Positions 5,702-55,539 of a stretch of DNA of 64,000 bases are shown here, piece after piece. Origin of the DNA: Bacteroidota bacterium (GTDB taxonomy: Bacteria; Bacteroidota; Ignavibacteria; Palsa-1295); NCBI GenBank assembly GCA_021324685.1, contig JAJPIQ010000008.1:47343-111342 (forward strand), given 5' to 3'. The notes below the pieces were generated by a model, which saw only the letters and a program-made list of their open reading frames with translations, had not been told where the DNA came from and searched no databases. The position numbers and the translations under genes are program-made. The first letter of the stretch is position 1. Every line of letters starts with the position of its first letter.

Positions 5702-8278
5702 ATGAAACAGTACCATCAAACCCTGCTTTGCGCAGCGGTCATCATCGCAGTGCTGTGCGGGCTTGCGAATGCACCGTTTGCACAATCCTCCACTCCATCG
5801 TCCAGCGTGCCGCGGACGATCTCCTATCAAGGCGTGCTCGAAACGCCGGCCGGCCTTCCGGCCCCCGACGGACCGTGCACGATCCACGTGCGGCTGTATG
5901 CCGATACGAATGGATCGGCACCGCTGTGGAGCGATACCTATACGACGACCGTCCGAAACGGCATCTTCAATGTGATGCTCGGTTCGGGAACCGTTCCACT
6001 TCCGGTGCCCTCCGCGATGGACGCTGCCCGATACGTCAGCATCCAGGTCGGAGAAGGCCCGGAGATCCGTCCGTTCTCGGAACTTGGCGCGACACCCTAT
6101 GCCATCACCGTTGCCGACGGCGCGATCACAAAGGATAAGATCGCGGCCGATTACGTCGGCTCCCTTTCGGTCAACGGCCAGAAAGTAACGGGACATGGCT
6201 CGGACGTAAACATCGAAACAAGCGGTGGACTTCATGCTTCGCTCGATCCCGTAACGAACGCGATCGTGCTTTATGGGACGACGGGCAGCGCCGGAAACGA
6301 TACCAAAGGCGGCGAGCTCCCCCAGGGAAACCAATATATCGACAATCAGACGACACAGCAATCGAGCGCGAGCTTTAATGTCGACGGTTCCGGCGTGATC
6401 GGCACGACCTTATCGGTCGGGTCCACGCTCACAGTGAGCGGTTCGATCAAAGCGGCGCTTGCCTCGGGCGTCGTGCATGCGAACGGTTCGGGCAATGCGC
6501 TGACCTCCGGTGCGGTCGCGCTCGGATCCGAAGTGAGCGGCTCCCTGCCCGTCGTCAATGGCGGCACCGGTGCGACGACCGCGGCGGCGGCAGCCAATAA
6601 CCTGCTCCCCACCCAAACGAGCAGCAGCGGGAAGTTTTTACAAACCGATGGCAATGGCACGCTTTCATGGGCGTCCGTTTCGCTGACGTCGAACGTGACG
6701 GGAACGCTTCCCATCGCGAACGGCGGGACCGGAGCGACCACGGCGACGGCCGCGGCGACCGCGCTATTGCCGGCACAAAGCGGAAATGCCAGCAAGTACC
6801 TTCAGACCGATGGAAATGGAAATTTGACCTGGGCGTCCGGTCCGACCGGACCGCAAGGTCCCGCCGGCCCGACCGGAGCGACTGGTCCTGCGGGCCCCAC
6901 CGGTGCGACCGGCCCCGGTGGTGCCGCCGGTCCTGCCGGCGCAGCGGGTCCTGCTGGAGCAACCGGAGCGACTGGTCCGGCAGGCCCTGCCGGGGCGTCT
7001 GGGCCTCAGGGTCTTCAGGGACCTCCGGGACCGAATACACCTTCGAGCGACAATGCCACGCCGCTTGGCAGTTCGAGCGACCGGTGGAGTGCATTGTATG
7101 TCGCTGGAGCGATCAATACCGGGCTTGCCGCGGGCGTCGTGCATAGTGCAGGTCCGGGATCGAACCTTACGAGTTCCGCCGTCTCGCTTACGAACGATGT
7201 ATCCGGAACGCTTCCGGCCGGCAACGGCGGCACGGGAATGCCAGGATCGGTCGGAACGAATTTCCTGCGCGGAAATAATTCCGGAGGATGGAGCCAGTCG
7301 GTCATCGGCGTTGCCGATGTGCCGGACCTTTCTTCGCTCTATGTCAATATGCGTACGGCGCAGACCGTCGGGGGCATGAAGCACTTTTCGTGCTCGGTCA
7401 CGACCGATTCGGGTTATCGGATCGGGGGGACGATCGTCCTTTCGAATTCCGGTTCGGAAAACCTATTCCTCGGCCAGGGTGCCGGCGTTGGAAATACGAA
7501 CGGCTTCAATAATATGTTCGCCGGTTACCAGGCGGGATATTCGAACACGACCGGTGAGAGCAACGAATTCGCCGGCATGTTCGCCGGATATGGCAACACG
7601 ACGGGCTCTGCGAATACCTTCGAGGGAGCGCTTGCCGGTTACAGCAGCACGAGCGGCGACGTCAATACCTTTATCGGTTCCGAGGCCGGATATAGTAACG
7701 ACGATGGATATCAAAATACGTTCATCGGCGATCTTGCCGGGCCGAACAATACGTCGGGCGCGAACAACACGGCGCTCGGGATGGAGGCGGGCTATAGCAT
7801 TACGGGCGAAGATAACATCACGCTCTTGGGCGCGGGGTCCGACATTGGGAACTACGGCATTACGAACGCAACGGCCGTGGGCGCGAACACTATCGTGAGC
7901 CAGAGTAATACCGTCGTCTTAGGTAGCGGGGCCAGCGTCGGCATCGGGACGAGCGCTCCGGACGCCACGCTGAACGTCGTGGGAACCGTCCATGCAACGG
8001 GCACGGCCACCTTCGACGGTTCCGTGATCGCGACGGCCAGCAACACGGCCGCTTCTTCGAACAGCGGCGTAACGATCACGGACGTACCCGTCTTTATCAT
8101 CGGCCAGGGTTCGGCCACGGCGGATTTTACGCTCACCATGCCGACCGGTTCGGCGGCCGGCGATATGATCGTCGTGATCAACCAGGACGCGACCTATTCG
8201 GCGACCTATAGCACGACGGCAAAAGTGGCACCGCTCGGTTCCCGCACGTTCTATTACGACGGCACGGCCTGGCAGTAG
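5702..8278 (+). CDS. Large secreted fibrous surface protein with tail-fibre-like NGGTG repeats, a collagen-like Gly-X-Y tract and YadA/tail-fibre-like 14-aa repeats
   Basis: ORF-track frame 5561..8278; the likely start is the ATG at 5702, giving signal peptide [29 protein letters not shown]. Two ~46-aa repeats carry LP(V/I)(V/A)NGGTGATTA...YLQTDGNG. There are 22 uninterrupted Gly-X-Y triplets (nt ~6838-7035). Later repeats look like N.F.G..AG.SNT.G ([30 protein letters not shown]...). Confidence 0.8.
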
Positions 8279-8805: not shown

Positions 8806-9423
8806 ATGAAACTACGCAACCTGCCCGTTCTCCTTTCGCTTGCCGTTCTCGCAGCCTGCTCGCCTTCGACCGCCCCAAACACGAGCGAAGACTTCACCGA
8901 CGCCAGCGCCCAATTCAGCGATAACGTCTCAGAGACTTATGCGATCGCCACGATCTCGAACCCGCCCGGGTTCGACCTTAAGTGGAAGGACCCGAACGGA
9001 ATTATTCGTTCCCTCGCTGGATGGCACGATACGACCGTCGTAGTAACGTTTTTTCGGACCGCCGACAAAGGGAGCGATACGCTGTTGCATGTGTTCGATT
9101 CGGTCGCCAACGATCTGCCGGACAGCGTGAAAATCCTTATGATCGATGACGATAACACTCCTTTGCGGTTCGGGACGGCGAACGCATTTGTCTCGGGACA
9201 AAAGTCGAAATCGGAAGTGCTGGTCGATTCCGGTTACCGCGCGCATTTCCGGTTTGCGGGGTTGCTGGATGGCCAGCTTTATTATACCGAAACGTTTATC
9301 GTGCGCCCCAATGGGAATGTGGTCACGGGCACGAATGGCAATGGCGTGATCGTGGGCTGGAATCCGGAATATGAAGCGCCGCATCTGTTCTTCGATAGCG
9401 TGGTCCGCGCGGCGTATCGCTGA
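8806..9423 (+). CDS. Hypothetical lipoprotein
   Basis: MKLRNLPVLLSLAVLAACSPS signal/lipobox; ~205 aa. Divergent from 8377..8715. Confidence 0.55.
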   Translation: MKLRNLPVLLSLAVLAACSPSTAPNTSEDFTDASAQFSDNVSETYAIATISNPPGFDLKWKDPNGIIRSLAGWHDTTVVVTFFRTADKGSDTLLHVFDSVANDLPDSVKILMIDDDNTPLRFGTANAFVSGQKSKSEVLVDSGYRAHFRFAGLLDGQLYYTETFIVRPNGNVVTGTNGNGVIVGWNPEYEAPHLFFDSVVRAAYR

Positions 9424-9427
9424 GCGC

Positions 9428-9691
9428 TCACCACTCCCGCCGGTGACGAAGTTCCCATAAGTGTTTTAAGAGCGACGCGCGGCTCGCTTTGGCCGCCTGG
9501 TGGACCTGGGCGTGCAGGCGCAGCCTTCCGAATGCGGCCAGGGCACAACAGGCAGCCGCCAGGATCAGGACGACGTAGCCCGCCCAATGAAAGGCTCCCC
9601 GAAAAAGATGGGCCGCATAAAAAGCGATGAACATCACGAGCAGCAGGAGCCCGATCGTGTTCAGAACGCGAATGGTTCGGCGGGACATCAT
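9428..9691 (-). CDS. Small hypothetical membrane protein with two predicted TM helices
   Basis: 87 aa. Hydrophobic stretches [16 protein letters not shown] and [16 protein letters not shown]. Overlaps the yidD stop by 4 nt. Confidence 0.45.
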
Positions 9692-10600: not shown

Positions 10601-10720
10601 CGCAGATTCCTTAGTCTAAAGTGGTCGTTTTTTGTCGGGCGGGCTAACAGGCAAAGCAAGGAAATAGGTTCAAACGGCCGAACAAATCAGGCTCGACGGC
10701 TAACAAAATAGCTTCAACGT

Positions 10721-11442: not shown

Positions 11443-12774
11443 ATGAGAATACTGGTCCTTGGGGGCGGCGCGCGGGAGCACGCGATCTGCTGGAAATTAA
11501 AACAGCGAGACCGACTCTATGAACAGCCGATCGAAACGAAGATTTTCTGTGCGCCCGGAAATGCCGGGATCGCACAGGTCGCGGAGATAGTGGAACTTAT
11601 ACCGACCGACGTGAAAGCCGTCGTCGGCTTTGCGATGCGCGAACGGATCGACCTGGTCGTCGTCGGACCGGAAGGTCCGCTTGCGGCGGGTGTTGCCGAT
11701 GCGCTCGATAAAGAACGGATCCCGGTCTTCGGCCCGCGGCGAACGGCGGCGCTGCTCGAAAGTTCGAAAGCCTTCGCGAAGGAATTTATGCAACGCCATG
11801 AAATTCCGACCGCGCGATACGCCGTGTTCTCCTTCGAAGAGCAGATCGAGTGTCGCGCGTTCCTTCGGCACGTGAACTATCCGGCCGTCATTAAGGCCGA
11901 TGGCCTTGCGGCCGGCAAGGGCGTCGTCATCTGCGAGACCGAAGCCGAGGGGACCCACGCCCTGGACGAAATTTTCACTCACCGCATTTTTGGCGAGGCC
12001 GGTGCGCGCGTCGTCATCGAAGAATACATGGAGGGCGAAGAAGCCAGCGTGTTCGCCGTGACCGATGGGATCGATTATGGCCTGCTGGCAACCGCCCAGG
12101 ACCATAAGCGGATTTTAGACGGCGATCGTGGAAAAAATACCGGCGGCATGGGTGCGTATGCTCCGGCCCCGATCGTGACCGAAGCTATTTTAGAGCAGGT
12201 CCGGCGGGAGATCATCGAACCGACGCTCAAAGGGTTGCGCGATGAGGGAAGAATGTATCGCGGCGTACTCTATTGCGGACTGATGATCGGCGAGGGCCGC
12301 GCGCGCGTCGTGGAGTTCAACGTCCGTTTTGGCGATCCCGAAGCCGAAGTGGTGCTGCCGCTCATCGACGGCGATGCCGCGGAACTCTTTCTTGCGTGCG
12401 CCGAAGGGCGCCTGGCCGAAACGCTGCCGATCAAACAGTTCCCAGCCTCGGCCGTGACGGTCGTCATGGCGAGCCAGGGATATCCCGAAAGTTACCAGAC
12501 CGGTGAGGCGATTTCCGGGCTGGAGGCGTTTACGCCGAACCGCGAGATTGAAGAAGGGATCGTCGTCTTTCACGGTGCCACGAAATTGGACGAGCGCGGC
12601 CGTTTTCTTACGTCCGGAGGACGCGTGCTCGCCGTGACCGCCGTCGGGTTCCGGGACGACCTGCGCGAAACGATCGCCCAGGCGTACAATGCCGTCTCCG
12701 AGATCAGCTTTAACGGCGCATACTACCGTAGCGACATCGGCAAAAAAGCCTTAAAGGCCATGGCCGCAGCGTAA
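11443..12774 (+). CDS. purD: Phosphoribosylamine--glycine ligase
   Basis: 443 aa. MRILVLGGGAREHAICWKL N-terminus and ATP-grasp core (EEYMEGEEASVFAVTDG) are typical of PurD. Confidence 0.9.
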   Translation: MRILVLGGGAREHAICWKLKQRDRLYEQPIETKIFCAPGNAGIAQVAEIVELIPTDVKAVVGFAMRERIDLVVVGPEGPLAAGVADALDKERIPVFGPRRTAALLESSKAFAKEFMQRHEIPTARYAVFSFEEQIECRAFLRHVNYPAVIKADGLAAGKGVVICETEAEGTHALDEIFTHRIFGEAGARVVIEEYMEGEEASVFAVTDGIDYGLLATAQDHKRILDGDRGKNTGGMGAYAPAPIVTEAILEQVRREIIEPTLKGLRDEGRMYRGVLYCGLMIGEGRARVVEFNVRFGDPEAEVVLPLIDGDAAELFLACAEGRLAETLPIKQFPASAVTVVMASQGYPESYQTGEAISGLEAFTPNREIEEGIVVFHGATKLDERGRFLTSGGRVLAVTAVGFRDDLRETIAQAYNAVSEISFNGAYYRSDIGKKALKAMAAA

Positions 12775-31794: not shown

Positions 31795-32001
31795 TGAACG
31801 GCCAACGTGCGCTCCAGCGCATGCGTTCAAGGGTATGCTCGATGATGTTCCCATCTACCAGGGCGCGCTTACTCCCCTGAAAATCGACTCGGAAAAGGTT
31901 GGTTAACTAATGGCGCGCGGGCGAGCGCATGCAAGGAGTACCGTGTTATTCCCTCGAACGCTGGGAACCAAGCCCATGGGAACTCGGTAAGTGTTCTGGC
32001 G

Positions 32002-35173: not shown

Positions 35174-35722
35174 ATGAAACTCACACTGGTTCTTTTCTCC
35201 ATCGTCGCATTCCTCGGTGTCTCTAACGCATTCGCTCAGGATGGCTCTGTCGGTACGGAGCACCAAGCAGTTATTACGGCGCCGAACGCCATCTATCTGG
35301 AAATTCTCGGATCGGGCCTGGTGCCATCGATCAATTACGACCGAATGATCGGGAATAGTTTTGCGGTCCGTGTCGGAGTCGGGTATTTACCTCTGGGAAC
35401 GGTCGTGTCCGATTCTGCCGATGGCCCCATTTCGGCTTCTATCACCACCGTTCCCGTCGGCCTCAGTTGGTTCCCATTCAGCGGCCCGAACTCCGCGCCG
35501 GCCAGCAAGCTCGAAATTGGCGTCAGCGCTTTTTATGCGAACGTGGTGGCAAAGTCGTTCAGCAATACGGCCGCAGGAAGCGGTATCGGATTCGGCGGAA
35601 TCCTGGGATATCGACTGGAACCGTCGGACGGCGGTTTTCTGCTACGCGTTGCACTCACGCCGTGGGACCTCCTGAATCACTTTCAAATGTACGGCGGGAT
35701 CAGTCTCGGCTGGTGCTTCTAA
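35174..35722 (+). CDS. Small hypothetical outer-membrane beta-barrel protein
   Basis: 182 aa. Signal peptide MKLTLVLFSIVAFLGVSNAFAQ. Alternating hydrophobic strands. C-terminal ...GGISLGWCF. Confidence 0.5.
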   Translation: MKLTLVLFSIVAFLGVSNAFAQDGSVGTEHQAVITAPNAIYLEILGSGLVPSINYDRMIGNSFAVRVGVGYLPLGTVVSDSADGPISASITTVPVGLSWFPFSGPNSAPASKLEIGVSAFYANVVAKSFSNTAAGSGIGFGGILGYRLEPSDGGFLLRVALTPWDLLNHFQMYGGISLGWCF

Positions 35723-35934
35723 TTACAGCGGCTGCAAACGTATTTGTAGAAGAGCTCTTTTCAGCCGGCTATCATACCACTTTTGTTGATCCATCACACA
35801 ATAATGAGATAAGGTATGCATCGAGTGGACCGAAGTCAAACATAATCGCTGCTACAATGCCGTAAATCGGTTTGCACCCATCGAACAACTGTTCGAGTCT
35901 TGCTTTGAAATCGAGCGCACGAATGGGAACAATG

Positions 35935-36717
35935 TCAGCGTTTCAACTTAAACGTATGGCTCACGTGGGACTCGGTGATGAAGCCATAGATACAGTTCCC
36001 AACATGGACCGTATCGCCTTTTCCTGCGGAAATATTAACTAAAAGTCGGTCTGCGTCGAACGATTTGAAATTTTGACTCATCGCCAATGGCGGGACAATG
36101 TATATTCCCGTATTTGGCACTACGCGGTAATACGATTGCCCCGTTTCCAGAATTTTTGCCGTGTCGTGTTTTAAGATTCCGCTTCCAAAGCAGGCAATGT
36201 GTATTAATACGGAGTCAGTCGTTTTAGGGGCACGATACCGTATCTCAAAGCCTTCCGACAAGCTAATAGAATCGCCGTCATCAGGAGCAAGAAATTGAAG
36301 CGAGGAGTCTCGAACAATAGTATGAGTGATAGAAGGATGATCCTCGCTCCCACTAAATTCCCATACTATGAGTTTCCCACGATTTGAAAGAATTCTCTTC
36401 GATTGCCCATAACCGACCGGGTTCCCATCGAGACGTACGCACGGCATTTCCGCACCGCCCGGTCGTTGAAGAGCCCCTATAGGGAACAGGACTTCAGCGT
36501 TGTAGTAATGCAGCGAATCGTTCGTGGAAGCCCCGTCGTCGTAGCATTCGAATATAGCATCGTACTCTCCCGGCGGAATCGGATTTAAGTGATGGTCCTG
36601 CCACTGGCGAACGATCCTGTCGGGATGATGTACGTTCTCCTGCTTACAGCCAGCGAAGAGAGCGACAAAAACTGCGAAGACGATCGAGCTACGAAGTTCC
36701 ACAACCCTCTGAATCAT
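35935..36717 (-). CDS. Hypothetical lipoprotein
   Basis: 260 aa. VFVALFAGCKQ lipobox. Stop overlaps the paaD start region. Confidence 0.5.
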   Translation of the reverse strand: MIQRVVELRSSIVFAVFVALFAGCKQENVHHPDRIVRQWQDHHLNPIPPGEYDAIFECYDDGASTNDSLHYYNAEVLFPIGALQRPGGAEMPCVRLDGNPVGYGQSKRILSNRGKLIVWEFSGSEDHPSITHTIVRDSSLQFLAPDDGDSISLSEGFEIRYRAPKTTDSVLIHIACFGSGILKHDTAKILETGQSYYRVVPNTGIYIVPPLAMSQNFKSFDADRLLVNISAGKGDTVHVGNCIYGFITESHVSHTFKLKR

Positions 36718-37259
36718 TACAGCGGCTTAAACCGTTCGAAGCCCTGTTTGCAGTCGTTACAGTAGTGGATCGAGCGGCAGAGTGTGGAACCGAACATGGA
36801 ACGGAGCTCGGTATTTGTGCTCCCGCAGTGCGGACACGCTACATGTTCGATCTGTGCGAAGTCGAGAACGCCGTCGATCGCGACCGGCGCGCCCAGCCCA
36901 AAGGCTTCGAGCTTTTTTCTTCCCAATTCCGAAATGCGGGCGCTCGTCCAATTCATTTCTGTTTCGAGATCGACCTGGACGCTTTTAAATCCCGCGTGGT
37001 GAAGCGCTTCTTCGATATTATTCCTAATATAGCTGGTGGCCGGGCAGGCTACGAATGTCGGAAGAAACCGGACGCTCACCGTATTGTCGCTGACTGCGAC
37101 GTTAGTAATCATTCCCAAATCCATGACAGACAATGTGGGAATCTCGGGGTCCATGACTGTTTCAAGGACGGAGAACGCTTTATGATTGCTGTCATTGCGA
37201 GGAGCATCGAACACGGCTCGGTCGTTCGATGCTGCTGACGGTGTAGAAAGATTTACCAT
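36717..37259 (-). CDS. paaD: 1,2-phenylacetyl-CoA epoxidase subunit D (PaaD/PaaJ, MIP18/DUF59 + Cys-rich C-terminus)
   Basis: 180 aa. VMDPEIPTLSVMDLGMI (DUF59-like) and C-terminal CPHCGS...C...CNDC zinc-ribbon. Positioned after paaC. Confidence 0.7.
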   Translation of the reverse strand: MVNLSTPSAASNDRAVFDAPRNDSNHKAFSVLETVMDPEIPTLSVMDLGMITNVAVSDNTVSVRFLPTFVACPATSYIRNNIEEALHHAGFKSVQVDLETEMNWTSARISELGRKKLEAFGLGAPVAIDGVLDFAQIEHVACPHCGSTNTELRSMFGSTLCRSIHYCNDCKQGFERFKPL

Positions 37260-38008
37260 GTTGCCGCCGGATCCAATCTATAGACTTCCGTCATTTCATC
37301 GAGGAGCGGCTGGAGGTACTCCGTGTGATAACCCTGACGCCCGCCATACACTCGCTCCTTGATCGGAAGTTTCGGTAGGGTAAGATTGGCCCGCTGCAAT
37401 AGTGGCGAAATAACATCAAGCCATTCGGTCTGGAGCGCGGTTTCGCCGATCGCGATTTTTTCGGCCACAAGCTCCTCTTCATATTTCGATGGCTCGAATA
37501 TTCCGAGGGCGTACGGAAACGCTTCGTTCAGCGCCGTCTGCATTCGTGCATGGCTTTCTTCAGTTCCCATGCCTAACTTTTTCACCCAAAGATCGGCGTG
37601 GAGCGTATGATATTTCAGTTCGCCTTTGATCTTCTTCGCTAACGCCGCAAGCGGAGCAAAAGAAGAATCCGAAAGCCTCGCATACCGGAGCGATTCGGCA
37701 TGATCGAAGAGAAAATGCCGCATCAGGCTGAAGGCGTAGTCGCCAATGGGGAGTTCGACGAACTGCGAGCACCGAAACTCCTTCTCATTGCGCGAAAAGG
37801 CGATGACATCCGGTACCGGCTCGCCGAAGTGCTCGTTCAGCAGCGTGTAGTTCGCAACGGCATGGCCGATCTGGTCCTGCGCGATGGAACTGAAAGCGAT
37901 ATCCTCTTCGAGGATCGGTCCGAGGCCGGTCCATTCGCTGTTGCGGTGGCCGATGATGAGTTCGTCATCGGCCATGCGATAGAGTAGGTCTTTTATTGCT
38001 TCGTTCAT
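37253..38008 (-). CDS. paaC: 1,2-phenylacetyl-CoA epoxidase subunit C
   Basis: 251 aa. LYRMADDELIIGHRNSEWTGLGPILEEDIAFSSIAQDQIGHA is a PaaC/PaaI ferritin-like sequence. Confidence 0.8.
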   Translation of the reverse strand: MNEAIKDLLYRMADDELIIGHRNSEWTGLGPILEEDIAFSSIAQDQIGHAVANYTLLNEHFGEPVPDVIAFSRNEKEFRCSQFVELPIGDYAFSLMRHFLFDHAESLRYARLSDSSFAPLAALAKKIKGELKYHTLHADLWVKKLGMGTEESHARMQTALNEAFPYALGIFEPSKYEEELVAEKIAIGETALQTEWLDVISPLLQRANLTLPKLPIKERVYGGRQGYHTEYLQPLLDEMTEVYRLDPAATW

Positions 38009-38044
38009 AAGTTCCTAAAAATGTCATTCCTGCAATGCTTTTGA

Positions 38045-38071
38045 TGTCATTCCCGCGAATGCGGGAATCCA
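38045..38071. repeat. Hairpin repeat copy A (tgtcattcccgcgaatgcgggaatcca; stem ATTCCCGC/GCGGGAAT, loop GAAT)
   Basis: Perfect 8-bp stem with a 4-nt loop. One of four related copies bracketing the GIY-YIG gene. A degenerate half-copy (tgtcattcctgcaatgc) lies at 38022-38038. Confidence 0.7.
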
Positions 38072-38081
38072 TAGCTTTCAT

Positions 38082-38459
38082 TTAGTATGAAGGTCCATTT
38101 TCACTCGGCTTATGGATGCCCGCATTCGCGGGCATGACAGGATTTGTTTCGAAATACGGAAATTGATAATTATTTGTTGAAAGATCGACCCATTCTGGAT
38201 TTTTCTTCTCGATCAAATTTATTTTCCACTGACGATTCCACTTTTTTAATTGCTTTTCCCGAGTTATTGCCGCGTTAATATCTGAAAAAAATTCGAAGTA
38301 GACTAATCGATTAACGTCGTATTGCTTTGTGAAACCCTCGAAAGTGCCTTCTTTGTGTTGAGCCACACGTCGCTCCAGATCCTTGGTCACGCCGATATAG
38401 AGCGTTCCGTTACGCTGACTCGCCATAATGTACACATAGTAGTTATGATTCATCATCAT
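38082..38459 (-). CDS. GIY-YIG nuclease family protein (small, single-domain)
   Basis: Start MMMNHNYYVYIMASQRNGTLYIGVTKDLERRVAQHKEG (GIY...YIG motif) within ORF 38082..38621. The ORF's N- and C-terminal extensions are simply read-through of hairpin repeats C, D and B (e.g. IPASAGMT, MPANAGIH). The region is AT-rich relative to its flanks. Confidence 0.75.
   Translation of the reverse strand: MMMNHNYYVYIMASQRNGTLYIGVTKDLERRVAQHKEGTFEGFTKQYDVNRLVYFEFFSDINAAITREKQLKKWNRQWKINLIEKKNPEWVDLSTNNYQFPYFETNPVMPANAGIHKPSENGPSY
38112..38139. repeat. Hairpin repeat copy B (inverted orientation; stem ATGCCCGC/GCGGGCAT)
   Basis: tggatgcccgcattcgcgggcatgacagg. Relative to copy A it carries compensatory t>g / a>c changes that preserve the stem. 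Confidence 0.7.
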
Positions 38460-38467
38460 CAGACTTC

Positions 38468-38495
38468 TTGTCATTCCCGCGGATGCGGGAATCCA
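38468..38495. repeat. Hairpin repeat copy C (ttgtcattcccgcggatgcgggaatcca)
   Basis: Same orientation as copy A; loop variant GGAT. Confidence 0.7.
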
Positions 38496-38539
38496 GCGCT
38501 TTCCTGCGATTTGAACTTCGCGGTTGGCCGCAAAGAATA

Positions 38540-38567
38540 GATTCCCACATTCGCGGGAATGACATTC
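38540..38567. repeat. Hairpin repeat copy D (inverted; gattcccacattcgcgggaatgacattc)
   Basis: Reverse complement is gaatgtcattcccgcgaatgtgggaatc. The stem has one G-T wobble position. Confidence 0.65.
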
Positions 38568-38574
38568 AAAATGT

Positions 38575-38922
38575 TTATCCCGACTCCTCCTCCATGTGAT
38601 CGAGATACTTGCTCTTGGCAAGCGTCTTCAGATCGTCGAGATATTTATTGATGCGTTTGCGAACGGGATAGCCCGAGGCTTCGCGATAGTTCTTATCGGG
38701 AATGGTCGAGAACATATCGTCATCCTCGTGCTGGAAGGTGAAAATATCGGTCGAGCGCACGACCCACAGGTTCACCGTCTTCTTGCGGCGGCCGAACTGC
38801 TCTTTCGCGAACGCGAGCGCAAGTTCCGGGTCCGGCGCGTGAACGATTCCGACGAATTCGTGCGCCGCGCCGCGCTTGTCCTGATGGAAGACCGCGAACG
38901 GTTCCCAATGTTCGTTTTGCAT
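38575..38922 (-). CDS. paaB: 1,2-phenylacetyl-CoA epoxidase subunit B
   Basis: Start MQNEHWEPFAVFHQDKRGAAHEFVGIVHAPDPELALAFAKEQFGRR...NLWVV matches PaaB (WPLYEVF...HVGS.HA.D...AL..AR..Y.RR). The ORF-track N-terminal extension (38923-38991) lies in the repeated 62-bp element and is rejected. Confidence 0.8.
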   Translation of the reverse strand: MQNEHWEPFAVFHQDKRGAAHEFVGIVHAPDPELALAFAKEQFGRRKKTVNLWVVRSTDIFTFQHEDDDMFSTIPDKNYREASGYPVRKRINKYLDDLKTLAKSKYLDHMEEESG

Positions 38923-38982
38923 GAGGCCGCCCGAGGCCGGAGCATGCTCCAGATCGGCGCGGCGGATGCGGGGGTCGAGACT
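38919..38982. repeat. 62-64-bp direct repeat R2 (gcatgaggccgcccgaggccggagcatgctccagatcggcgcggcggatgcgggggtcgagact), containing the paaB start codon and a 12-bp perfect palindrome GGAGCATGCTCC
   Basis: Near-identical copy (3 mismatches) at 40148..40211. Palindrome at 38939-38950. Confidence 0.8.
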
Positions 38983-38993
38983 GGTGGTCATAA

Positions 38994-40151
38994 TTAAAAT
39001 TTGTAAACGTATTTTTCTGCTAATATAATTGAGTCATTGCTCCCTAGATAACTGCACGATAATGGGAGGTTATCTTCTCTCCATTCGTATGAAACAGCAT
39101 TCGTTAAACCTGGAAGGGAAATAAATTTACGTGTACGCTCGACAGGTCTGCCTTCTTCGTCATACACATATTGTATTATCTCCGTGTCCAATGGGTTCGA
39201 GCAAGGCAGAGGCGGGCAGTTTATACAACGTTCTCGTATAATTACCTTATTGAGCGAAAGGATGACATTACCATGGCTATCAAATCGATCTTCGCTACGA
39301 AGGCACGGTGCTGTCACATCCTTTAATAGTTGATAATGTGAGGTTCGAATGATATTACCATTTCTATCGAGAATAGTGCTATCTATATATAGAGGTTCTT
39401 GGTCATTGTATTGCAATCTTTGTGACGCAATAATTTCATTCCTGTTGTTAAAGTAATTAATAATGCGTTCCGAAAGTCGAAGATTGTTTACGTTGTTGCC
39501 GGTTTTATGCTGCCAATCAATTTCGCTGTCGATCCTTTCTGAAGGTCCCCAATACATTACCGATTTCGTACCCTGATAATCGACGGAACTCCAATTGGAG
39601 TTATCCGTGATTTGAGCGACTGTCGCAGTCTCCACTGAATTGTCCCGGTATTGAACGTATGATAATTCCCGACCCAAAGAATCATAATGGAAGATATCGG
39701 ACGAACCGGGATCTTTCTGAAAGTTACCGTATTCCCTTTTGATATTCCGTTTGTCGAATTTTATTTCTGTCGTTGCATTTAGTTCTCGATTAAAGTTTGT
39801 CGCAATAAGCGTATCACCCGAATAAGAGAACGTCCACGTTTCCGTATCGGCGACGGGAGAATATTTGGACGAGTCGAATACTGGAATCGTATCGTTTGGA
39901 TTGGTTGAATCGATACGATGCGGATAATTAAAGCTATAGCTAATACATGAGAACGATTTCAGATGATGACTACGAATCCATTGGAGCGCTGATGTATCGT
40001 CACACCAAGCAAGTTGATGCAAGTTAATTCCCGGTGAGGTGTGTTCCGGCCAGTCGGGGACAAATTGAGCGTATAGTTCCGTTCCCGTTAACAGCATAAA
40101 ACAAAACGAGAAGAATCCGAAAGCATATCCTTTCCAATGCCTAGTCTGCAT
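38994..40151 (-). CDS. Secreted YD-repeat (RHS-repeat-like) protein, paralog 2; low-GC
   Basis: Start MQTRHWKGYAFGFFSFCFMLLTGTELYAQ (signal peptide) within ORF 38994..40220. YD motifs HYDSLGRELSY, FDSHGNVIL, YVYDEEGRPVER; C-terminal ...VYKF. The first 6 codons (MQTRHW) mirror paaB's MQNEHW because the R repeat spans the start. Confidence 0.65.
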   Translation of the reverse strand: MQTRHWKGYAFGFFSFCFMLLTGTELYAQFVPDWPEHTSPGINLHQLAWCDDTSALQWIRSHHLKSFSCISYSFNYPHRIDSTNPNDTIPVFDSSKYSPVADTETWTFSYSGDTLIATNFNRELNATTEIKFDKRNIKREYGNFQKDPGSSDIFHYDSLGRELSYVQYRDNSVETATVAQITDNSNWSSVDYQGTKSVMYWGPSERIDSEIDWQHKTGNNVNNLRLSERIINYFNNRNEIIASQRLQYNDQEPLYIDSTILDRNGNIIRTSHYQLLKDVTAPCLRSEDRFDSHGNVILSLNKVIIRERCINCPPLPCSNPLDTEIIQYVYDEEGRPVERTRKFISLPGLTNAVSYEWREDNLPLSCSYLGSNDSIILAEKYVYKF

Positions 40152-40211
40152 AAGCCCGCCCGAGGCCGGAGCATGCTCCAGATCGGCGCGGCGAATGCGG
40201 GGGTCGAGACT
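40148..40211. repeat. Direct repeat R1, copy of R2 (gcataagcccgcccgaggccggagcatgctccagatcggcgcggcgaatgcgggggtcgagact)
   Basis: Lies between the two YD-repeat genes. Carries the ATG of the downstream YD paralog and the same 12-bp palindrome (40168-40179). Confidence 0.8.
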
Positions 40212-40229
40212 TTGTAACATGGTCGCTAT

Positions 40230-41249
40230 TCAAAATTTGTATACACATGTTGAATTTCCGTTATGATCTCTTATGGCCAGAAGACGATCATCATCTCCCC
40301 AAATGTATTCATTTCGTCCCCCGTCGCCCGTGCTCACTGTGACACGCCCAAATGAGTCATATTCATATGAATCACTAGTGGTATCAGGCTCAGCCCCCCA
40401 TAGATCGTAGCGTGTCTCGGTCGTGATAGAGCGAATACGATTGGCGTGCTCATCGAACAGTTTTTCCCCACAGAAATGAAGATTGTTGTCTTCGTCCTTA
40501 TCTGGATTATTCCAAAATCCATACGTGACAACCCGTTGCAAAATACCGGAAGGATAGTAGAAAAAACTATCGATCGATGTCGCTCCGCTGAATATCTCGT
40601 AAGAAAGCTGGAGCCGATTCGATACGTCGTAGAAATTGTGCGTTGCTGTAACAAGAATTGTATCTACGTTGCTTTGCTTGAGCTTTCCTTTCCGTTTCTT
40701 GGGTGTAAGGACCATTCTCTCGAAAGCGCTATCTACTCGTCCTCCCAAACCGAAATACTTAGTCTCAAGCCAATAGCCGTGTTGGATGGTAAGCACCTTG
40801 CCGATCTGTGCATATGACCATGTTTCAAGATTTGGCTTCTCGTCACTCCATCTCCGCGCTGAGTCTGCCAGCAAGACTTGTTCGCTTAACTGCCTCCCAA
40901 TTGAGTCGAAGGTTTTAATCCTTGTCAGACCGGATGAGTGCGTTTCGAGATAACAAAGCGTATCACGGCCATCGTACTTCTCTATCATTTCTTGATTCGG
41001 ATGTCCAATATTCGTAATACGGACAAGGGTATCTCCTGAGACTGAGAAGCCGTATTCCCAAATGGTATCTGGACGATTAGACACTACTACTCCAGCCATT
41101 TTGAGATGATGCGCTCTGATCCAAGCGAGTGTAAGCGGAGTCGGCGATTCCAAGTTCACACCTGGATCCGTACGAATATTGTACTGAGCGTTCGCATAAT
41201 TAGCGAACGTCAGTAACAATACCATCCCCATAAGCAATCGCGCGTTCAT
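40230..41249 (-). CDS. Secreted YD-repeat (RHS-repeat-like) protein, paralog 1; low-GC
   Basis: 339 aa. Signal peptide MNARLLMGMVLLLTFANYANAQ. Shared motif LAWIRAHHLKM (vs LQWIRSHHLKS in paralog 2). YEYDSFGRVTV YD repeat; C-terminal ...CVYKF. Confidence 0.65.
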   Translation of the reverse strand: MNARLLMGMVLLLTFANYANAQYNIRTDPGVNLESPTPLTLAWIRAHHLKMAGVVVSNRPDTIWEYGFSVSGDTLVRITNIGHPNQEMIEKYDGRDTLCYLETHSSGLTRIKTFDSIGRQLSEQVLLADSARRWSDEKPNLETWSYAQIGKVLTIQHGYWLETKYFGLGGRVDSAFERMVLTPKKRKGKLKQSNVDTILVTATHNFYDVSNRLQLSYEIFSGATSIDSFFYYPSGILQRVVTYGFWNNPDKDEDNNLHFCGEKLFDEHANRIRSITTETRYDLWGAEPDTTSDSYEYDSFGRVTVSTGDGGRNEYIWGDDDRLLAIRDHNGNSTCVYKF

Positions 41250-41261
41250 TGATTCGGATAA

Positions 41262-42263
41262 TTACGCATACGGCACCATCGTTTTCACGCCCGGTTTCAT
41301 CATTGCTTCGCGCACCCAGCGCCCATTCTCCTCGGCGTAGCGGCGGACGGCGAGGCGCTCCTTGTTGCAGGGGCCATCGCCATTGATGACGCGGAAGAAT
41401 TCATCCCAGTCGGGCTGGGTATATTCCCATTTGCCTTCAGCGTTTTTCTTGAGCGCAGGATCGGGAAGTGTAAGCCCCAGTTCCCAGATCTTCGGAACAT
41501 ATTGTTCGAGGAAGTCCTGCCGCATCTCTTCGTTCGACATCATCTTCACTTTCCAGCGCATGAGTTTTTCGGTGTGGACCGAGATCGTGTCCGGCGGACC
41601 GAAAAAGTGCATCATCGGCGGGAACCACCACCGGTTGAGCGCGTCCTGTACCATCGCGCGCTGCATCGGGGTTCCCACTGCGAGCGCGACGAACGCATCG
41701 TAGCCCTGCTTCAAATGGAATGATTCCTCATAGCAAATTCTCTCGAGCGCGCGGCAGTACGGGCCGTAGCTGCCCTTCGCATTGGCGAGCTGATTGACGA
41801 TCGCGCCGGCATCGACCAGAAACCCGATGACCGCAATATCGGCCCAGGTTTTCGCGGGATAGTTGAAAATATTGCTGTACTTCGATTTGCCGCTGATGAG
41901 ATCGTTGATCATCGCCTCACGCGATTTGCCGAGCGTTTCGGCGGCGCTATAGAGCAAGTGCCCGTGGCCAACCTCGTCCTGCACTTTCGCGATGAGTGCA
42001 AGTTTCCGTTTCAGCGTTGGTGCGCGAGTGATCCAGGTTCCCTCCGGCAGCGCGCCGATGATTTCGGAGTGAGCATGCTGCTCGATCATGCGCAGCACCT
42101 GGCGGCGGTATTCGGCGGGCATCCAGTCATCCGGCTCGATCTTTTCGCCGCGCGCAATGCGAGCTTCGAATTCCGCGAGTTTAACGGGATCTTCCTGTAC
42201 TTCCGGTTTGGAAGCTTTTCCATTGATTTTTGGATCTTCTTCGATCGAGGCGTTTCCGTACAT
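41262..42263 (-). CDS. paaA: 1,2-phenylacetyl-CoA epoxidase catalytic subunit A
   Basis: 333 aa. [50 protein letters not shown] is a di-iron PaaA sequence. Confidence 0.85.
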
Positions 42264-42268
42264 AGGTA

Positions 42269-42841
42269 TTAAATGGTGATTCCTTCAATCAGGATCGTGG
42301 TAATGAGCTCCGCAACCTGGTCGGATGAAAATTTGGTGTTGGGCCGATATGATTCGTACGTCCAGTTCGTGGCCGAAAGCAACGTCCGCGCCGCAATGTT
42401 CGGGTCGACGTTCTTGAATACGCCGGCTGAAATTCCTTCTTCGATCAGCTCACGAAAGATTCCCTCGTACCGGCGGCGCATGTGCCGAAAATCTTTAAGG
42501 AAGGGCTCCCGCATGTGCCGCCATTCATGCAGGAACACTCCCGAGGCATCGGAATTCGCGGCGATCACCCGCAGGTGCGCCCCGATCGCGGCGTGTAATC
42601 GTTCCGAGGGGCCCTCAACGGCCTGAATAGCGGACTCGATGCTGGTAAAAAATTCGTCCGCCATTCGAAAACAAATTTCCTGAAGGATCTCCTCTTTCGA
42701 ACCGACGTGATTATAAAGGCTTGCGGCCTCGATCCCAAGGGTTTCCGCGAGGTCCCGCATGGAGGTAGCGGTGTAGCCCCGTTCCCGAAAAAGCAGTTGT
42801 GCTTTTTCGCGGATTTGGTCTTTTCGAGCAATCGTCCTCAC
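42269..42841 (-). CDS. TetR/AcrR family transcriptional regulator, candidate paa repressor
   Basis: 190 aa. N-terminal [46 protein letters not shown]. Immediately upstream of paaA, divergent from mraZ. Confidence 0.8.
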
Positions 42842-53112: not shown

Positions 53113-53511
53113 ATGAAGCAACCGTTACTTGTATTTTTGTACGTTTTGATTTTCGTTGCAATCTGTTTCGGAGTTTACTTCCTTATTGCGTTTATCACGG
53201 GTAAATTTATTCGAAGGAAGGCTATTCGCATATTGGTCGCAGTTCCACTTAGTATTCTTATTTGTGTGCTCGGAATGTGGTTTTTGGGGACCGAGCCGGA
53301 AAATAGCGTGACTGCTCAAAAATATATTTCTGGAAGTCCTGCTCAAGTCGATAGCATTGTGGGGAAAACTCGAAGTGAGACACGTAGCTTGTTAGGAGAC
53401 CCTACAGATTCTGTAGAGAATGAGTATTATTATGGTATAGCTCGTCACGAAGGAATTTCCGTCGAGTTTGAAAACGGAAAGGTTTACAAAGTTTATCATA
53501 CTGGAAGGTAA
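53113..53511 (+). CDS. Small hypothetical membrane protein inserted between murD and ftsW (low-GC)
   Basis: 132 aa. Two TM helices (LLVFLYVLIFVAICFGVYFLIAFI; ILVAVPLSILICVLGMWFLG). Start is 1 nt after the murD stop. AT-rich relative to the dcw genes. Confidence 0.5.
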   Translation: MKQPLLVFLYVLIFVAICFGVYFLIAFITGKFIRRKAIRILVAVPLSILICVLGMWFLGTEPENSVTAQKYISGSPAQVDSIVGKTRSETRSLLGDPTDSVENEYYYGIARHEGISVEFENGKVYKVYHTGR

Positions 53512-53567
53512 ACACAACTGTTAAAAAATATCGCCCTTTTAGGGCATTGGAATTTTAATGCACTGCT

Positions 53568-53725
53568 AACCCAGGGCTTCGTCCGCATTCGCGGACTGCG
53601 CCCTGGGCTGCGAGTACACCGTGCCTACGGCACTAAGGAATTGCGGCAATGGGAATTTATCAAAAATTAGCCACGAAGTGGCGAAGTACTCGCAGCCCAG
53701 GGTGAAGCGAAGCGCAACCCTGGGT
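53568..53725. repeat. Cluster of nested hairpins / inverted repeats in the dcw insertion (X1 53568-53617 and inverted X2 53686-53725 share ends acccaggg...ccctgggctgcgagtac; inner hairpin gtccgcATTCgcggac)
   Basis: The inner hairpin at 53581-53596 shares the CCGC-GAAT/ATTC-GCGG core with the GIY-YIG-associated hairpins. Additional palindromes gtgcctacggcac (53621-53633) and ccacgaagtgg (53671-53681). Confidence 0.6.
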
Positions 53726-53776
53726 AAAATGACGAATAGATTTTTTATGGCCCTGTAAGGGCGATGTTAAACCGAA

Positions 53777-54370
53777 ATGAAACCAAAACGAACCGCCGAC
53801 CTGAGCCTGTTTTTGACCGTGACCGGTCTTTTGCTCGGTTCGGTTAGTTCTCTCGCTGTTGCACAAAAGAATCGGGCAATAGTATCTCACGATAGTACAG
53901 ATCACGAATTTTTGCCGATCACTCAGAATCCCGACTTCATCTTGCCGATGGACGACCCGGAAGATGATTCAAATTATGATTATGGGACACAGGCTGCTTT
54001 GAATGGACTGGCAGGTGAATATTCTCGTAAGGTTGATTCGATGCTGAACACCGTCTATAAAGCAATATTGAGTAAGTATAGCGTGGATACTGAATTTATT
54101 CGATACTTTAAGAGAGCCGAAGCCGCCTGGATAATATATAGAGATGCCGAAATGTTGGCGATTATTCCACCTATTGAACCACCGGATGTCCATGGCTCCA
54201 TGGAAAGCATGTGCTACAGTGAATACCGAGTCTCGCTTACTCGAGAACGAATAAGCGAATTGCTGATGTGGCTAAACGTCGATCCGATGAACCAGACGGG
54301 ATGCGATACTTTTTATCCTGATGATTTATTACAATCAATGCGAGGCCAAAAAAATCAAAGAAAAGAATGA
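53777..54370 (+). CDS. Secreted DUF1311/LprI-like (lysozyme-inhibitor-like) protein whose first 20 codons duplicate the 5' end of ftsW
   Basis: 197 aa. MKPKRTADLSLFLTVTGLLLGSVSSLAVAQ. nt 53776-53837 are ~97% identical to 54366-54427 (the ftsW start). LNTVYKAILSKYS...RAEAAWIIYRDAEML...HGSMESMCYSEYRVSLTRERISELL fits the DUF1311 pattern (Y...L...QRAWI.YRDA.C....GGS....C......R..EL). Its stop overlaps the ftsW ATG (ATGA). Confidence 0.6.
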   Translation: MKPKRTADLSLFLTVTGLLLGSVSSLAVAQKNRAIVSHDSTDHEFLPITQNPDFILPMDDPEDDSNYDYGTQAALNGLAGEYSRKVDSMLNTVYKAILSKYSVDTEFIRYFKRAEAAWIIYRDAEMLAIIPPIEPPDVHGSMESMCYSEYRVSLTRERISELLMWLNVDPMNQTGCDTFYPDDLLQSMRGQKNQRKE

Positions 54371-55539
54371 AACCCAAACGGACCGCCGACCTGAGCCTGT
54401 TTTTGACCGTGACCGGTCTTTTGCTCGCAAGCCTGGCGTTCGTGTACTCGGCAAGCGCCTCGTTCAGCGCGGTGAAGATGGGCGCGAGCGAGTCGATGCT
54501 CTTCAATCACGCAAAGAAAGTGTTCCTGTCGCTCGTCGCGATGATCGTCTTCACGAAGATCGACTACCATAAATTCGAAAAGCAGACGAAATGGATCATG
54601 ATCTCCTCGCTCTTTCTGCTGGTGGCCGTGCTCTTTATCGGGACGCGGGAACTCGGCGCGCGGCGCTGGCTGGCGCTTGGGCCGTTCAGCTTTCAACCGG
54701 CGGAGTTCGCAAAGTTCGCACTCGTGCTGCATGTGGCAGCGCTCTGCGCGGCAAAGCAGGAGATCATCGGTAACTTCAAGAAAGCATTCCTTCCCATTGT
54801 CTTTTGGGCGATCGCCGCCGCGGCGCTGATCGCGAAGCAGCCGAACATGTCCACGGCAAGCGTGCTCATGGTGATCGCATTTGCGATCATGTATATTGCG
54901 CAGGTGCCGCTGAAGTATATGCTGACGAGTGGCGCCCTGGCCCTGTTTGGAGGCGGGCTCTTCGCGCTGACGGCAAGTTACCGCGTTCAGCGCATGCTGG
55001 CGTTCGTTGGGCATCACACCCAGCATACATCGCAGGTCGCATATCAGACGGACCAGGCGCTCATTGCCTTCGGCAATGGCGGACTGTTCGGGGTCGGCAT
55101 CGGGCAGTCGCGGCAAAGCCTGTTTTTCCTTCCTGAGTCCTACGGGGACTTCATTTATTCGGTGATCGGTGAAGAATATGGATTCATCGGCGCGATCCTG
55201 CTCCTGGTCGTCTTCGGATTCATCGTCATTCGCGGCATTCAAATTGCAAAACATGCTCCCGATGCATTCGGACGCTACACGGCCTTCGGAATTACGATGA
55301 CCCTTGCCCTGTACGTTACGATCAATGCGTTCGTGAATGTTGGGCTCCTGCCGGTCACGGGACTGCCGATGCCATTCGTAAGCTATGGGGGCACGAGCAT
55401 GATCTTCAGCGCCGCGGCCATGGGAATTTTACTCAATATCTCGAAATACGCCGTGACGCTCCCGAGGGCACCTCGGGTGACGATCGCGGAGCGCCTCTTG
55501 CGCATCGTAAAACCACCAGAACAGGAAGCCATTGCCTAA
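54367..55539 (+). CDS. ftsW: Peptidoglycan glycosyltransferase FtsW (SEDS family)
   Basis: 390 aa, ~10 TM helices. SEDS motifs (…PAEFAKFALVLHVAAL…, …GLLPVTGLPMPFVSYGGTSM…). Canonical position. Confidence 0.85.
   Translation: MKPKRTADLSLFLTVTGLLLASLAFVYSASASFSAVKMGASESMLFNHAKKVFLSLVAMIVFTKIDYHKFEKQTKWIMISSLFLLVAVLFIGTRELGARRWLALGPFSFQPAEFAKFALVLHVAALCAAKQEIIGNFKKAFLPIVFWAIAAAALIAKQPNMSTASVLMVIAFAIMYIAQVPLKYMLTSGALALFGGGLFALTASYRVQRMLAFVGHHTQHTSQVAYQTDQALIAFGNGGLFGVGIGQSRQSLFFLPESYGDFIYSVIGEEYGFIGAILLLVVFGFIVIRGIQIAKHAPDAFGRYTAFGITMTLALYVTINAFVNVGLLPVTGLPMPFVSYGGTSMIFSAAAMGILLNISKYAVTLPRAPRVTIAERLLRIVKPPEQEAIA

Follow-up and report, generated by a model that had tools for sequence, protein, structure and literature searches.

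Two divergent genes for YD-type proteins and a partial copy of paaB at the paaA–paaB junction of an Ignavibacteria genome

Results

Genes at the paaA–paaB junction

The stretch analysed here (64,000 nt of contig JAJPIQ010000008.1 from a Bacteroidota bacterium of the Ignavibacteria; called the window, whose numbering is used throughout) contains a phenylacetate (paa) gene cluster on its minus strand, in which two genes for YD-type proteins and a partial copy of paaB lie between paaA and paaB. From the open reading frame (ORF) list and Pfam matches, the gene order was TetR, paaA, YD1, YD2, paaB, GIY-YIG, paaC, paaD and orf260. The cluster was headed by a gene for a TetR-family regulator (42269..42841; Pfam TetR_N and TetR_C_24), which is divergent from mraZ and also precedes paaA in most related loci. 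paaA (41262..42263; Pfam PaaA_PaaC, E 3e-80), for subunit A of 1,2-phenylacetyl-CoA epoxidase, was 90–91% identical to loci L001–L005 of Candidatus Kapaibacterium/Ignavibacteriota metagenome-assembled genomes. Next came YD1 (40230..41249) in slot 1, an ORF of 339 amino acids (aa) with YD-type beta-hairpin repeats and predicted export, and then YD2 (38994..40220; 408 aa from ATG 40220, or 38994–40151 when read from Met24 at 40151). The first part of the YD2 ORF (R1, 40131..40220) was a copy of paaB codons 1–30 joined in frame to YD2, and the genuine 5′ coding end of paaB (R2, 38902..38991; ATG 38991, repeat 38902–38982) followed YD2. paaB itself (38575..38991, 138 aa; Pfam PaaB over residues 29–113) carried an N-terminal extension of the Bacteroidota type. 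A preliminary description of this DNA had two paralogous secreted YD-like genes splitting paaA from paaB, and both ORFs were indeed found there, homologous over their full length.

The spacers were short (12 nt between paaA and YD1, 9 nt between YD1 and YD2, 2 nt between YD2 and paaB) and no terminator-like site was detected on the coding strand between paaA and paaB, suggesting that paaA, YD1, YD2 and paaB are likely to be co-transcribed. The computed G+C content and G+C content at third codon positions (GC3) were 0.46/0.46 for YD1 and 0.41/0.40 for YD2, against 0.57/0.71 for paaA and 0.58/0.75 for paaB (window mean G+C 0.555). The insert (GC3 0.40–0.46 versus 0.71–0.75) is thus AT-rich, as described earlier, and the flanks, put at ~60% G+C before, are actually at ~57%. 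The YD1-R1-YD2 junction was also present in an independent Joint Genome Institute assembly (L084, 99.9% identity over 2603 nt), which rules out an assembly chimera; a Logan contig (L083) was 100% identical and stopped within R1.

The R1/R2 repeat is a copy of paaB coding sequence

R1 and R2 formed a direct repeat of 81 nt with 88% identity (38902–38982 and 40131–40211, spacing 1229 nt). Its core, found by blastn, was 65 nt long with 95% identity and three mismatches (38918–38982 and 40147–40211; E 1.5e-25 against the whole window). Re-alignment therefore bore out the direct repeat with three mismatches and extended it beyond the length first given. Apart from a collagen-like array and Mur-ligase paralogy, the 64 kb contained just one other long dispersed direct repeat.

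The repeat had been thought to hold the Shine-Dalgarno (SD) site and start codon of paaB. The N-terminal extension of PaaB, M-x-x-SLDPR[IV]-x-R, was kept in ~70 Bacteroidota/Ignavibacteriota loci (tblastn), with alignments beginning at residue 1–4 of the long ORF; on this conservation the start of paaB is placed at ATG 38991 (MTTSLDPRIRR...), with MQNEHW internal at Met24. The repeat, read in this frame, is coding sequence (paaB codons 4–30) and not an SD/start region. The Pfam PaaB model began only at residue 29 of the long PaaB ORF, and the ~28-residue extension (38905–38991 in the window, ~70 loci) fell outside both the Pfam PaaB and the TIGR02157 models.

The R1 copy had its own ATG at 40220, in register with the ATG of paaB, and its frame ran on into YD2, so that the second YD gene does carry a copy of the paaB 5′ end, as an in-frame leader. 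Over codons 4–25, R1 and paaB differed at four positions, all four synonymous, which fits an origin from two functional paaB alleles. Over codons 26–30 the changes were N>T, E>R and E>K, by which the stretch ahead of the hydrophobic core was turned basic. The paaB-derived part comprised only the first 29–30 codons of the YD2 ORF and lay outside the Pfam PaaB domain.

Other roles for the paaB 5′ end were tried and rejected. Folding z-scores (−1.5, 0.1, −1.4 and −0.75) were not better than those of shuffles, the register of a candidate RNA hairpin differed among lineages, and synonymous-codon identity over codons 1–30 (0.55–0.72) fell among the values for the remaining codons; no Rfam family matched the paaB 5′ end at the gathering threshold. 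Nor did the repeat resemble an attC or att-type site with a cognate integrase, being ordinary coding sequence of every paaB with no integrase-like ORF nearby.

Start and predicted export of YD2

The long YD2 ORF began MLQSLDPRIRR... from ATG 40220 and read MLQSLDPRIRRADLEHAPASGGLMQTRHW-KGYAFGFFSFCFMLLTGTELYA/Q (slashes in this and later sequences mark junctions or putative cleavage sites). The 20 nt upstream of ATG 40220 were 65% A+T, like those of trusted starts, against 20% A+T for the 20 nt upstream of Met24. SD-like motifs were present at 2 of 25 starts in this genome, and public gene calls start YD2 at the upstream ATG (P0001). On this A/T-rich context, the rarity of SD motifs and the gene calls, YD2 probably starts at the leader ATG and not at MQTRHW, as had been described.

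Signal peptides here and below were judged by inspection and hydropathy only. The PaaB-derived residues would form the n-region of a long YD2 signal peptide, in which the hydrophobic core GYAFGFFSFCFMLLTG is followed by an LYA/Q site (maximum hydropathy, KD(11), 2.25 at residues 34–44 of the long ORF). The putative signal peptide of YD1 was MNARLLMGMVLLLTFANYANA/Q (maximum KD(11) 2.61 at residues 5–15, ANA/Q).

YD1 and YD2 resemble YD-repeat proteins at the level of fold and motifs

YD1 and YD2 were paralogues with 24–28% identity over their full length, and both ended in VYKF. They had in common the motifs WIRxHHLK, GDT, K[YF]D, YDSxGR, RIDS, IDSxFY, FDxHGN, YxYDxxGR and a C-terminal Y-x-[YF]-[EK]-F, and contained YD-type hairpin motifs such as YEYDSFGR, FHYDSLGR and YVYDEEGR. 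Matches to the Pfam RHS_repeat model PF05593 (17.8 bits for YD1, 16.5 bits for YD2; one stretch or none) were below the curated cut-off of 22, and no NCBIfam family matched either protein at E ≤ 0.1; a relative (P0015) had a precomputed PF05593 match.

An AlphaFold2 model of YD1 from a 13-sequence alignment (pLDDT 80.6) consisted of a short N-terminal helix and then ~22 beta-strands. The best PDB matches of this model in Foldseek were RhsA, VgrG-Rhs, Tse15 and teneurin YD shells (E 1e-8 to 1e-7), pointing to an antiparallel beta-hairpin sheet of the YD type. The model of YD2 from five sequences (pLDDT 48.8) was too poor for use. An Rhs-associated core with an enclosed C-terminal toxin was absent from both proteins, which had no further Pfam or NCBIfam domain and ended at Y-x-Y-[EK]-F directly after the repeats, at a length of 339–408 aa; the earlier characterization as small YD proteins lacking a toxin domain is thus sound. 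The YD/RHS label holds for fold and motifs and fails for the family models, so these are not canonical Rhs proteins. The strands were highly charged and several relatives ran past the terminal Phe, which makes a soluble YD-type sheet more likely than a membrane barrel.

Neither YD protein had a match to any Paa subunit in Pfam or NCBIfam, and their only link to phenylacetate catabolism was position. PADLOC found no anti-phage defence match for YD1, YD2 or the LprI protein described below. Our best guess, held with low confidence, is that the YD proteins bind something at the cell envelope or shield it, under diversifying selection and unrelated to phenylacetate catabolism. As a working view they would be Sec-exported envelope proteins under diversifying or frequency-dependent selection, riding the paa promoter.

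A family of YD genes in a hypervariable slot

A profile search for the YD family gave 12 matches among 1.84 billion representatives, and two word-indexed searches of 5.8 billion clusters added almost no further members. Of the ten members with genomic context, nine belonged to one Kapabacteria clade and lay between paaA and paaB or, on short contigs, just ahead of paaB. Members positioned directly upstream of a paaB gene or downstream of paaA were those of L081, L082, L085/86, L088/89, L090, L093 and the contigs with P0005 and P0012; a distant member (P0014) was elsewhere, adjoining msrA. The genes are therefore not a one-off insertion. Orthologues of YD2 were found at the same junction with 73% (P0002, L081) and 58% (P0003, L082) identity. 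GC3 was 0.32–0.53 in all family members against 0.64–0.77 in the neighbouring paaA and paaB. Comparison with related genomes thus cuts both ways for an insertion: YD family members at the junction count against it, yet their G+C content is low there too.

YD subtypes were 22–37% identical, compared with 75–91% for paaB and paaC of the same genomes, and YD1 and YD2 (24%) were no closer to each other than either was to other family members. In the paaC tree, YD carriers were interspersed with non-carriers. Among 70 loci with paaA and paaB on one strand, the gap between them ranged from 8 to 2859 nt (≤100 nt in 44, 100–300 nt in 9 and >300 nt in 17), and the cargo was unrelated among loci (PIN, Schlafen/AlbA_2, NOV_C, Por_Secre_tail proteins of the type IX secretion system (T9SS), 23S-rRNA-IVP). 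Mobility genes were sought in the ORF list and Pfam matches of the 35–43.5 kb region of the window, and no transposase or integrase was found there. With conserved flanks, whole-gene content that differs between genomes and no mobility genes, the paaA–paaB junction is a hypervariable slot between conserved flanking genes.

The junction was a cargo hotspot across the Bacteroidota too (L036, L045, L051, L055; L003; L001; L002; L029/L053). Cargo in Flavobacteriales consisted of T9SS-sorted secreted proteins of ~470 aa; elsewhere it comprised a Schlafen/AlbA_2-HATPase_c_4 protein, a NOV_C protein, a PIN toxin pair and 23S-rRNA-IVP four-helix proteins. Some loci also had insertions at paaB–paaC and paaC–paaD.

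Downstream of paaB in the window, paaC (37253–38008), paaD (36717–37259) and orf260, an ORF for a predicted lipoprotein of 260 aa (35935–36717), followed on the minus strand, with Pfam as the evidence. A second cargo of the operon, a small GIY-YIG gene, lay between paaB and paaC on the same strand (38027..38570, ORF 38082–38474; Pfam E 5e-20; G+C 0.40). It was bracketed by palindromic repeats (38039–38139 and 38469–38570) with palindromes of 25–35 nt (TGTCATTCCCGCGAATGCGGGAATC), of which a further diverged copy was at 31944; its 3′ repeat region had a sub-threshold Rfam match to WsnRNA46 (38 bits; gathering score 65). L088 had a GIY-YIG gene at the same paaB–paaC position (7495–7896). Intergenic repeats resembling repetitive extragenic palindromes or miniature inverted-repeat transposable elements (REP/MITE-like; 49–111 nt, 88–91% identity) were present in other paa loci, namely L021 (1655–1765 and 2113–2223), L023 (2515–2677 and 4877–4952), L028 (3492–3872) and L076 (4092–4596); in L021 the same 111-nt element occupied both the paaA–paaB and the paaB–paaC spacers. 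Being intergenic, the direct repeats of these four loci were rejected as gene-end duplications of the kind considered below.

Relics of paaB in relatives and loss of a YD gene by recombination

In L081 the order was the YD2 orthologue, a decayed and non-fused 30-codon paaB relic, an unrelated orf192 and paaB. This YD2 orthologue, present once, immediately followed paaA, and its ordinary start overlapped the stop of paaA; another subtype was placed likewise in L088. The stop/start junction AATTTTAATTATGACCAC was the same between YD2 and paaB in the window and between the YD2 orthologue and the paaB relic in L081. In L002 the first 47 nt of a window-type paaB lay, non-fused, between two unrelated ORFs. 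A metagenome protein-pattern scan and a 35-nt DNA pattern scan gave no matches and no further junction variants.

L085 contained an in-frame fusion: its orf401 began with the first 28 codons of paaB (MDSLDPRIRRADLEASPASGGLKQNEHW), followed by a putative signal peptide and a YD-family body. L086 had an upstream YD gene 100% identical to that of L085 and was devoid of orf401. The 5′ end of its paaB corresponded to R1 of L085 on the left and to R2 on the right, with the crossover within a 43-nt identical block. L085 and L086 are thus a pair with and without the gene, L086 being the exact product of R1 × R2 recombination, and repeats of this kind do mediate loss. Gain by the same homologous route may also occur.

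A second fusion at murD–ftsW and other gene-end duplications

In the same window, on the plus strand, a 62-nt direct repeat with 97% identity (53776–53837 and 54366–54427) comprised the ATG and first 20 codons of ftsW; both differences were synonymous. It flanked a low-GC LprI/DUF1311 gene (53777–54370; Pfam E 4e-15) between murD and ftsW (54367–55539), the start of ftsW being overlapped by the stop of the LprI gene. The LprI gene carried the first 20 codons of ftsW fused in frame, and its product started MKPKRTADLSLFLTVTGLLL/GSVSSLAVA/QK. As no other Met occurs before about residue 58, the borrowed ATG must be the start. The maximum KD(11) was 2.16 at residues 11–21, with an AVA/Q site. The FtsW N-terminus and first hydrophobic segment would therefore supply both the only available start of LprI and the core of its predicted signal peptide. 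An exact-sequence look-up of FtsW returned no record, and this case is read from the window alone.

Close by, a low-GC ORF for a membrane protein of 132 aa with no family (orf132, 53113–53511, plus strand) was found just after murD. The 265-nt intergenic region between orf132 and the LprI gene (53512–53776) contained nested inverted repeats (cgcccttttagggc...gccctgtaagggcg; cccagggc...gccctggg; ctgcgagtac...gtactcgcag), had no Rfam match at the gathering threshold and resembled a REP/MITE-like element or a structured RNA. The collagen-like array excepted above was a G-x-y tandem array of 9-nt period (GGTCC/GGCCC) at 6837–7032 on the plus strand, within an ORF of 858 aa with a putative signal peptide (5702–8278).

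Gene-end duplications of 47–90 nt around single cargo genes were seen in four related loci. In L001 an 81-nt copy of the paaA 3′ end flanked an AbrB-like ORF (8932–9010 and 9377–9457), and in L005 a 70-nt copy of the paaD 3′ end flanked a lipoprotein homologue of the orf260 type (10637–10706 and 11537–11606). Beyond orf260 in the window, only 20 nt of the paaD end could be traced (35722–35741), a match that 2 of 300 shuffles equalled in score. Self-comparison of 95 sequences (1.25 Mb in total) gave seven such duplications around low-GC single-gene cargo in ~15 Kapabacteria loci and none in ~75 other Bacteroidota loci, an enrichment biased by a sample centred on one operon. There were four targets (paaA 3′, paaB 5′, paaD 3′ and ftsW 5′), and the lengths varied (47, 62, 70, 81 and ~90 nt). 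No recombinase, transposase or reverse transcriptase adjoined any of these cases, and no terminal motifs or inverted repeats were common to their cargo ends.

Origin of the YD1-R1-YD2-R2 arrangement

On balance we lean towards an origin in which two divergent YD alleles of a hypervariable slot were merged by one-sided recombination and a paaB relic was co-opted as the leader of YD2. The slot would lie inside a TetR-paaABCD operon and hold occupants that differ by genome, the usual one in one clade being the rapidly diversifying YD family (~300–380 aa). A YD2-paaB segment would have entered a paaA-YD1-paaB chromosome through a homologous crossover in paaB at one end and an illegitimate joint, from about codon 30 of paaB to the signal-peptide region of YD2, at the other. 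The mirror-image event is equally possible, with the homologous end in paaB or in paaA. The 5′ end of the resident paaB would thereby be left as the R1 relic in frame with YD2, and an intact paaB (R2) would lie downstream. From the relic YD2 would obtain its start codon, A/T-rich surroundings for initiation and the charged N-terminal portion of a long signal peptide, which would be removed at LYA/Q on export. The direct repeats would also render the cassette unstable, as R1 × R2 recombination would delete the YD2 unit. The predicted parental allele has YD1 followed directly by paaB, with a start of the ATGTTACAAAGT type. That two slot alleles were joined is suggested by the YD2-type single copies directly after paaA, by the junction sequence common to the window and L081, and by YD1 and YD2 being as distant from each other as from other subtypes. 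General recombination is the default explanation, since no recombinase, no common terminal motifs and no fixed duplication length were found.

Several points weigh against this origin. A genome with paaA-YD1-paaB alone, be it donor or recipient, was not recovered, and the gene downstream of P0005 is unassigned. Homology-facilitated illegitimate recombination is mainly linked to deletions, not duplications, at the joint. Both in the window and in L085 the paaB/YD joint followed the codons for HW, yet the genes downstream of it were only 22% identical; this hints at an older common fusion or a preferred site instead of independent random joints. At 52 residues the signal peptide would be of unusual length, which leaves Met24 as a possible start of YD2. 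General recombination alone fails to explain the seven-to-none enrichment in Kapabacteria, nor does the merger account for the persistently low GC3 of a family long resident at this site.

Among the other explanations, an ancient intrachromosomal tandem duplication from the YD signal-peptide region to about codon 30 of paaB survives best, though we consider it unlikely. The YD copies would have diverged to 24% identity while gene conversion, or selection acting on the leader, kept R1 paaB-like. Such a duplication predicts the observed junction (a complete YD1, paaB(1–30) fused to a YD2 lacking its own start, a complete paaB and a 1229-nt period), the two genes are paralogous over their full length, and the HW fusion point in common with L085 is compatible with one old event. 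Yet identity is 95% in the repeat against 24% between the genes, and YD1 and YD2 are mutually no closer than to any other family member. Single YD2 orthologues are found in slot 1 with a start overlapping the paaA stop, which R1 × R2 deletion cannot yield, and gene-end copies also flank non-paralogous cargo, i.e. LprI (ftsW), AbrB-like (L001), PIN (L002) and orf192 (L081). Of the two origins offered in the preliminary description, recombination at the paaB 5′ end thus comes close to the model that we prefer, whereas simple tandem duplication is unlikely on account of the 24% identity and the single copy in L081.

It is less probable still that cassettes cycle in the manner of Campbell, as single-gene circles carrying one host gene end of 60–90 nt that are excised and re-integrated by a short-homology single crossover. 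Every unit pairs a single gene with a single repeat (lengths of 590 nt for ftsW, 1229 nt for the present locus, 1217 nt for L085, 445 nt for L001 and 900 nt for L005), and L086 is precisely what excision from an array like that of L085 would leave; simple deletion, however, explains L086 equally well. RecA recombination over 45–90 nt is inefficient, no circular form and no replication or transfer function was seen, and cycling accounts for spread but not for the origin of the first fusion. Just as doubtful is the wider proposal that the Kapabacteria clade has a distinct route, by a dedicated enzyme or a cycle of excision and re-integration, which installs promoterless cargo in operons and duplicates 47–90 nt of a host gene end. 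The 5′-end duplicates would then routinely become the start and leader of the cargo, as with the PaaB N-terminus and the first transmembrane helix of FtsW.

A dedicated and unrecognised insertion mechanism of this clade, which would bring in single genes without promoters and duplicate 47–90 nt of the target sequence at the boundaries of genes, for example by widely staggered cleavage or target-primed synthesis, appears very improbable. It would account for the seven duplications at four targets in ~15 related loci against none in ~75 others, two of them within one 64-kb window, but the duplication lengths vary, none of the cases adjoins a recombinase, transposase or reverse transcriptase, the cargo ends have no common terminal motifs or inverted repeats, and the loci were sampled around one operon. 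Equally remote is a role of the YD proteins as accessories of the phenylacetate pathway (periplasmic substrate binding or uptake) whose position is selected: it would suit the strict paaA–paaB synteny across the clade and the tight, operon-like spacing, but close relatives have no YD genes or unrelated cargo in the slot, divergence is extreme and GC3 low compared with the conserved paa genes, and no match to any paa-pathway family was obtained.

Discussion

Under the preferred origin, in which two slot alleles were merged by recombination, the locus offers an example, read at the sequence level, of how a foreign or shuffled ORF may be made expressible in a packed operon by inheriting the start and the first 20–30 codons of the next gene, in a lineage that hardly uses SD sites. 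In two cases, including ftsW, the borrowed residues become part of the predicted signal peptide. A further outcome is a tiny, uncharacterised family of short YD-type proteins with predicted secretion, hypervariable and found in one slot of one operon of one clade, together with what looks like an excess of gene-end duplications in Kapabacteria, a possible general route of operon remodelling.

The YD proteins resemble Rhs/YD-repeat proteins and the YD shells of teneurins (PF05593) in their YD-type beta-hairpins, predicted secretion and best structural matches. Unlike these, they have only ~300–380 aa and ~22 strands, too short for a closed shell, lack the Rhs core, toxin and N-terminal plug, and have a conserved N-terminal WIRxHHLK helix and a C-terminal Y-x-[YF]-[EK]-F of their own.

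The slot itself resembles the minimal mobile elements of Neisseria, where variable cassettes, set between conserved genes, are swapped through homologous recombination (Saunders & Snyder 2002; Snyder 2007, as cited in PMC3787668). As those elements are summarised there, both have differing whole genes at one site in close relatives, no mobility genes and homologous exchange or loss. Set against that summary, the paaA–paaB site differs in being inside an operon, between two subunits of one enzyme, and in that some events here leave flanking gene-end duplications of 47–90 nt that form the N-terminus of the cargo. In the lpl genes of Staphylococcus aureus, tandem lipoprotein paralogues diversify by homologous recombination at a conserved nucleotide block, and the unit of evolution runs from the 3′ portion of one ORF across the spacer into the 5′ portion of the following ORF (Tsuru & Kobayashi 2008, PMC2568036). 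The YD pair likewise consists of tandem paralogous genes for proteins of predicted export with a conserved, recombining nucleotide block, but the block here is borrowed from the unrelated housekeeping gene paaB and there are only two copies.

As in integrative elements (attL/attR), the insert lies between direct repeats that stem from the end of the target gene, and that gene stays intact. Unlike in such elements, there is no integrase, the joints vary (47, ~75–90 and 87–90 nt into paaB), the targets vary (paaA 3′, paaB 5′, paaD 3′ and ftsW 5′) and the cargo is a single promoterless gene. The locus thus combines known processes, namely hypervariable inter-gene slots, partial-gene duplications and YD-repeat proteins, with an unusual and recurrent twist in which the N-termini of host genes appear to be co-opted as leaders of inserted genes for putative secreted proteins.

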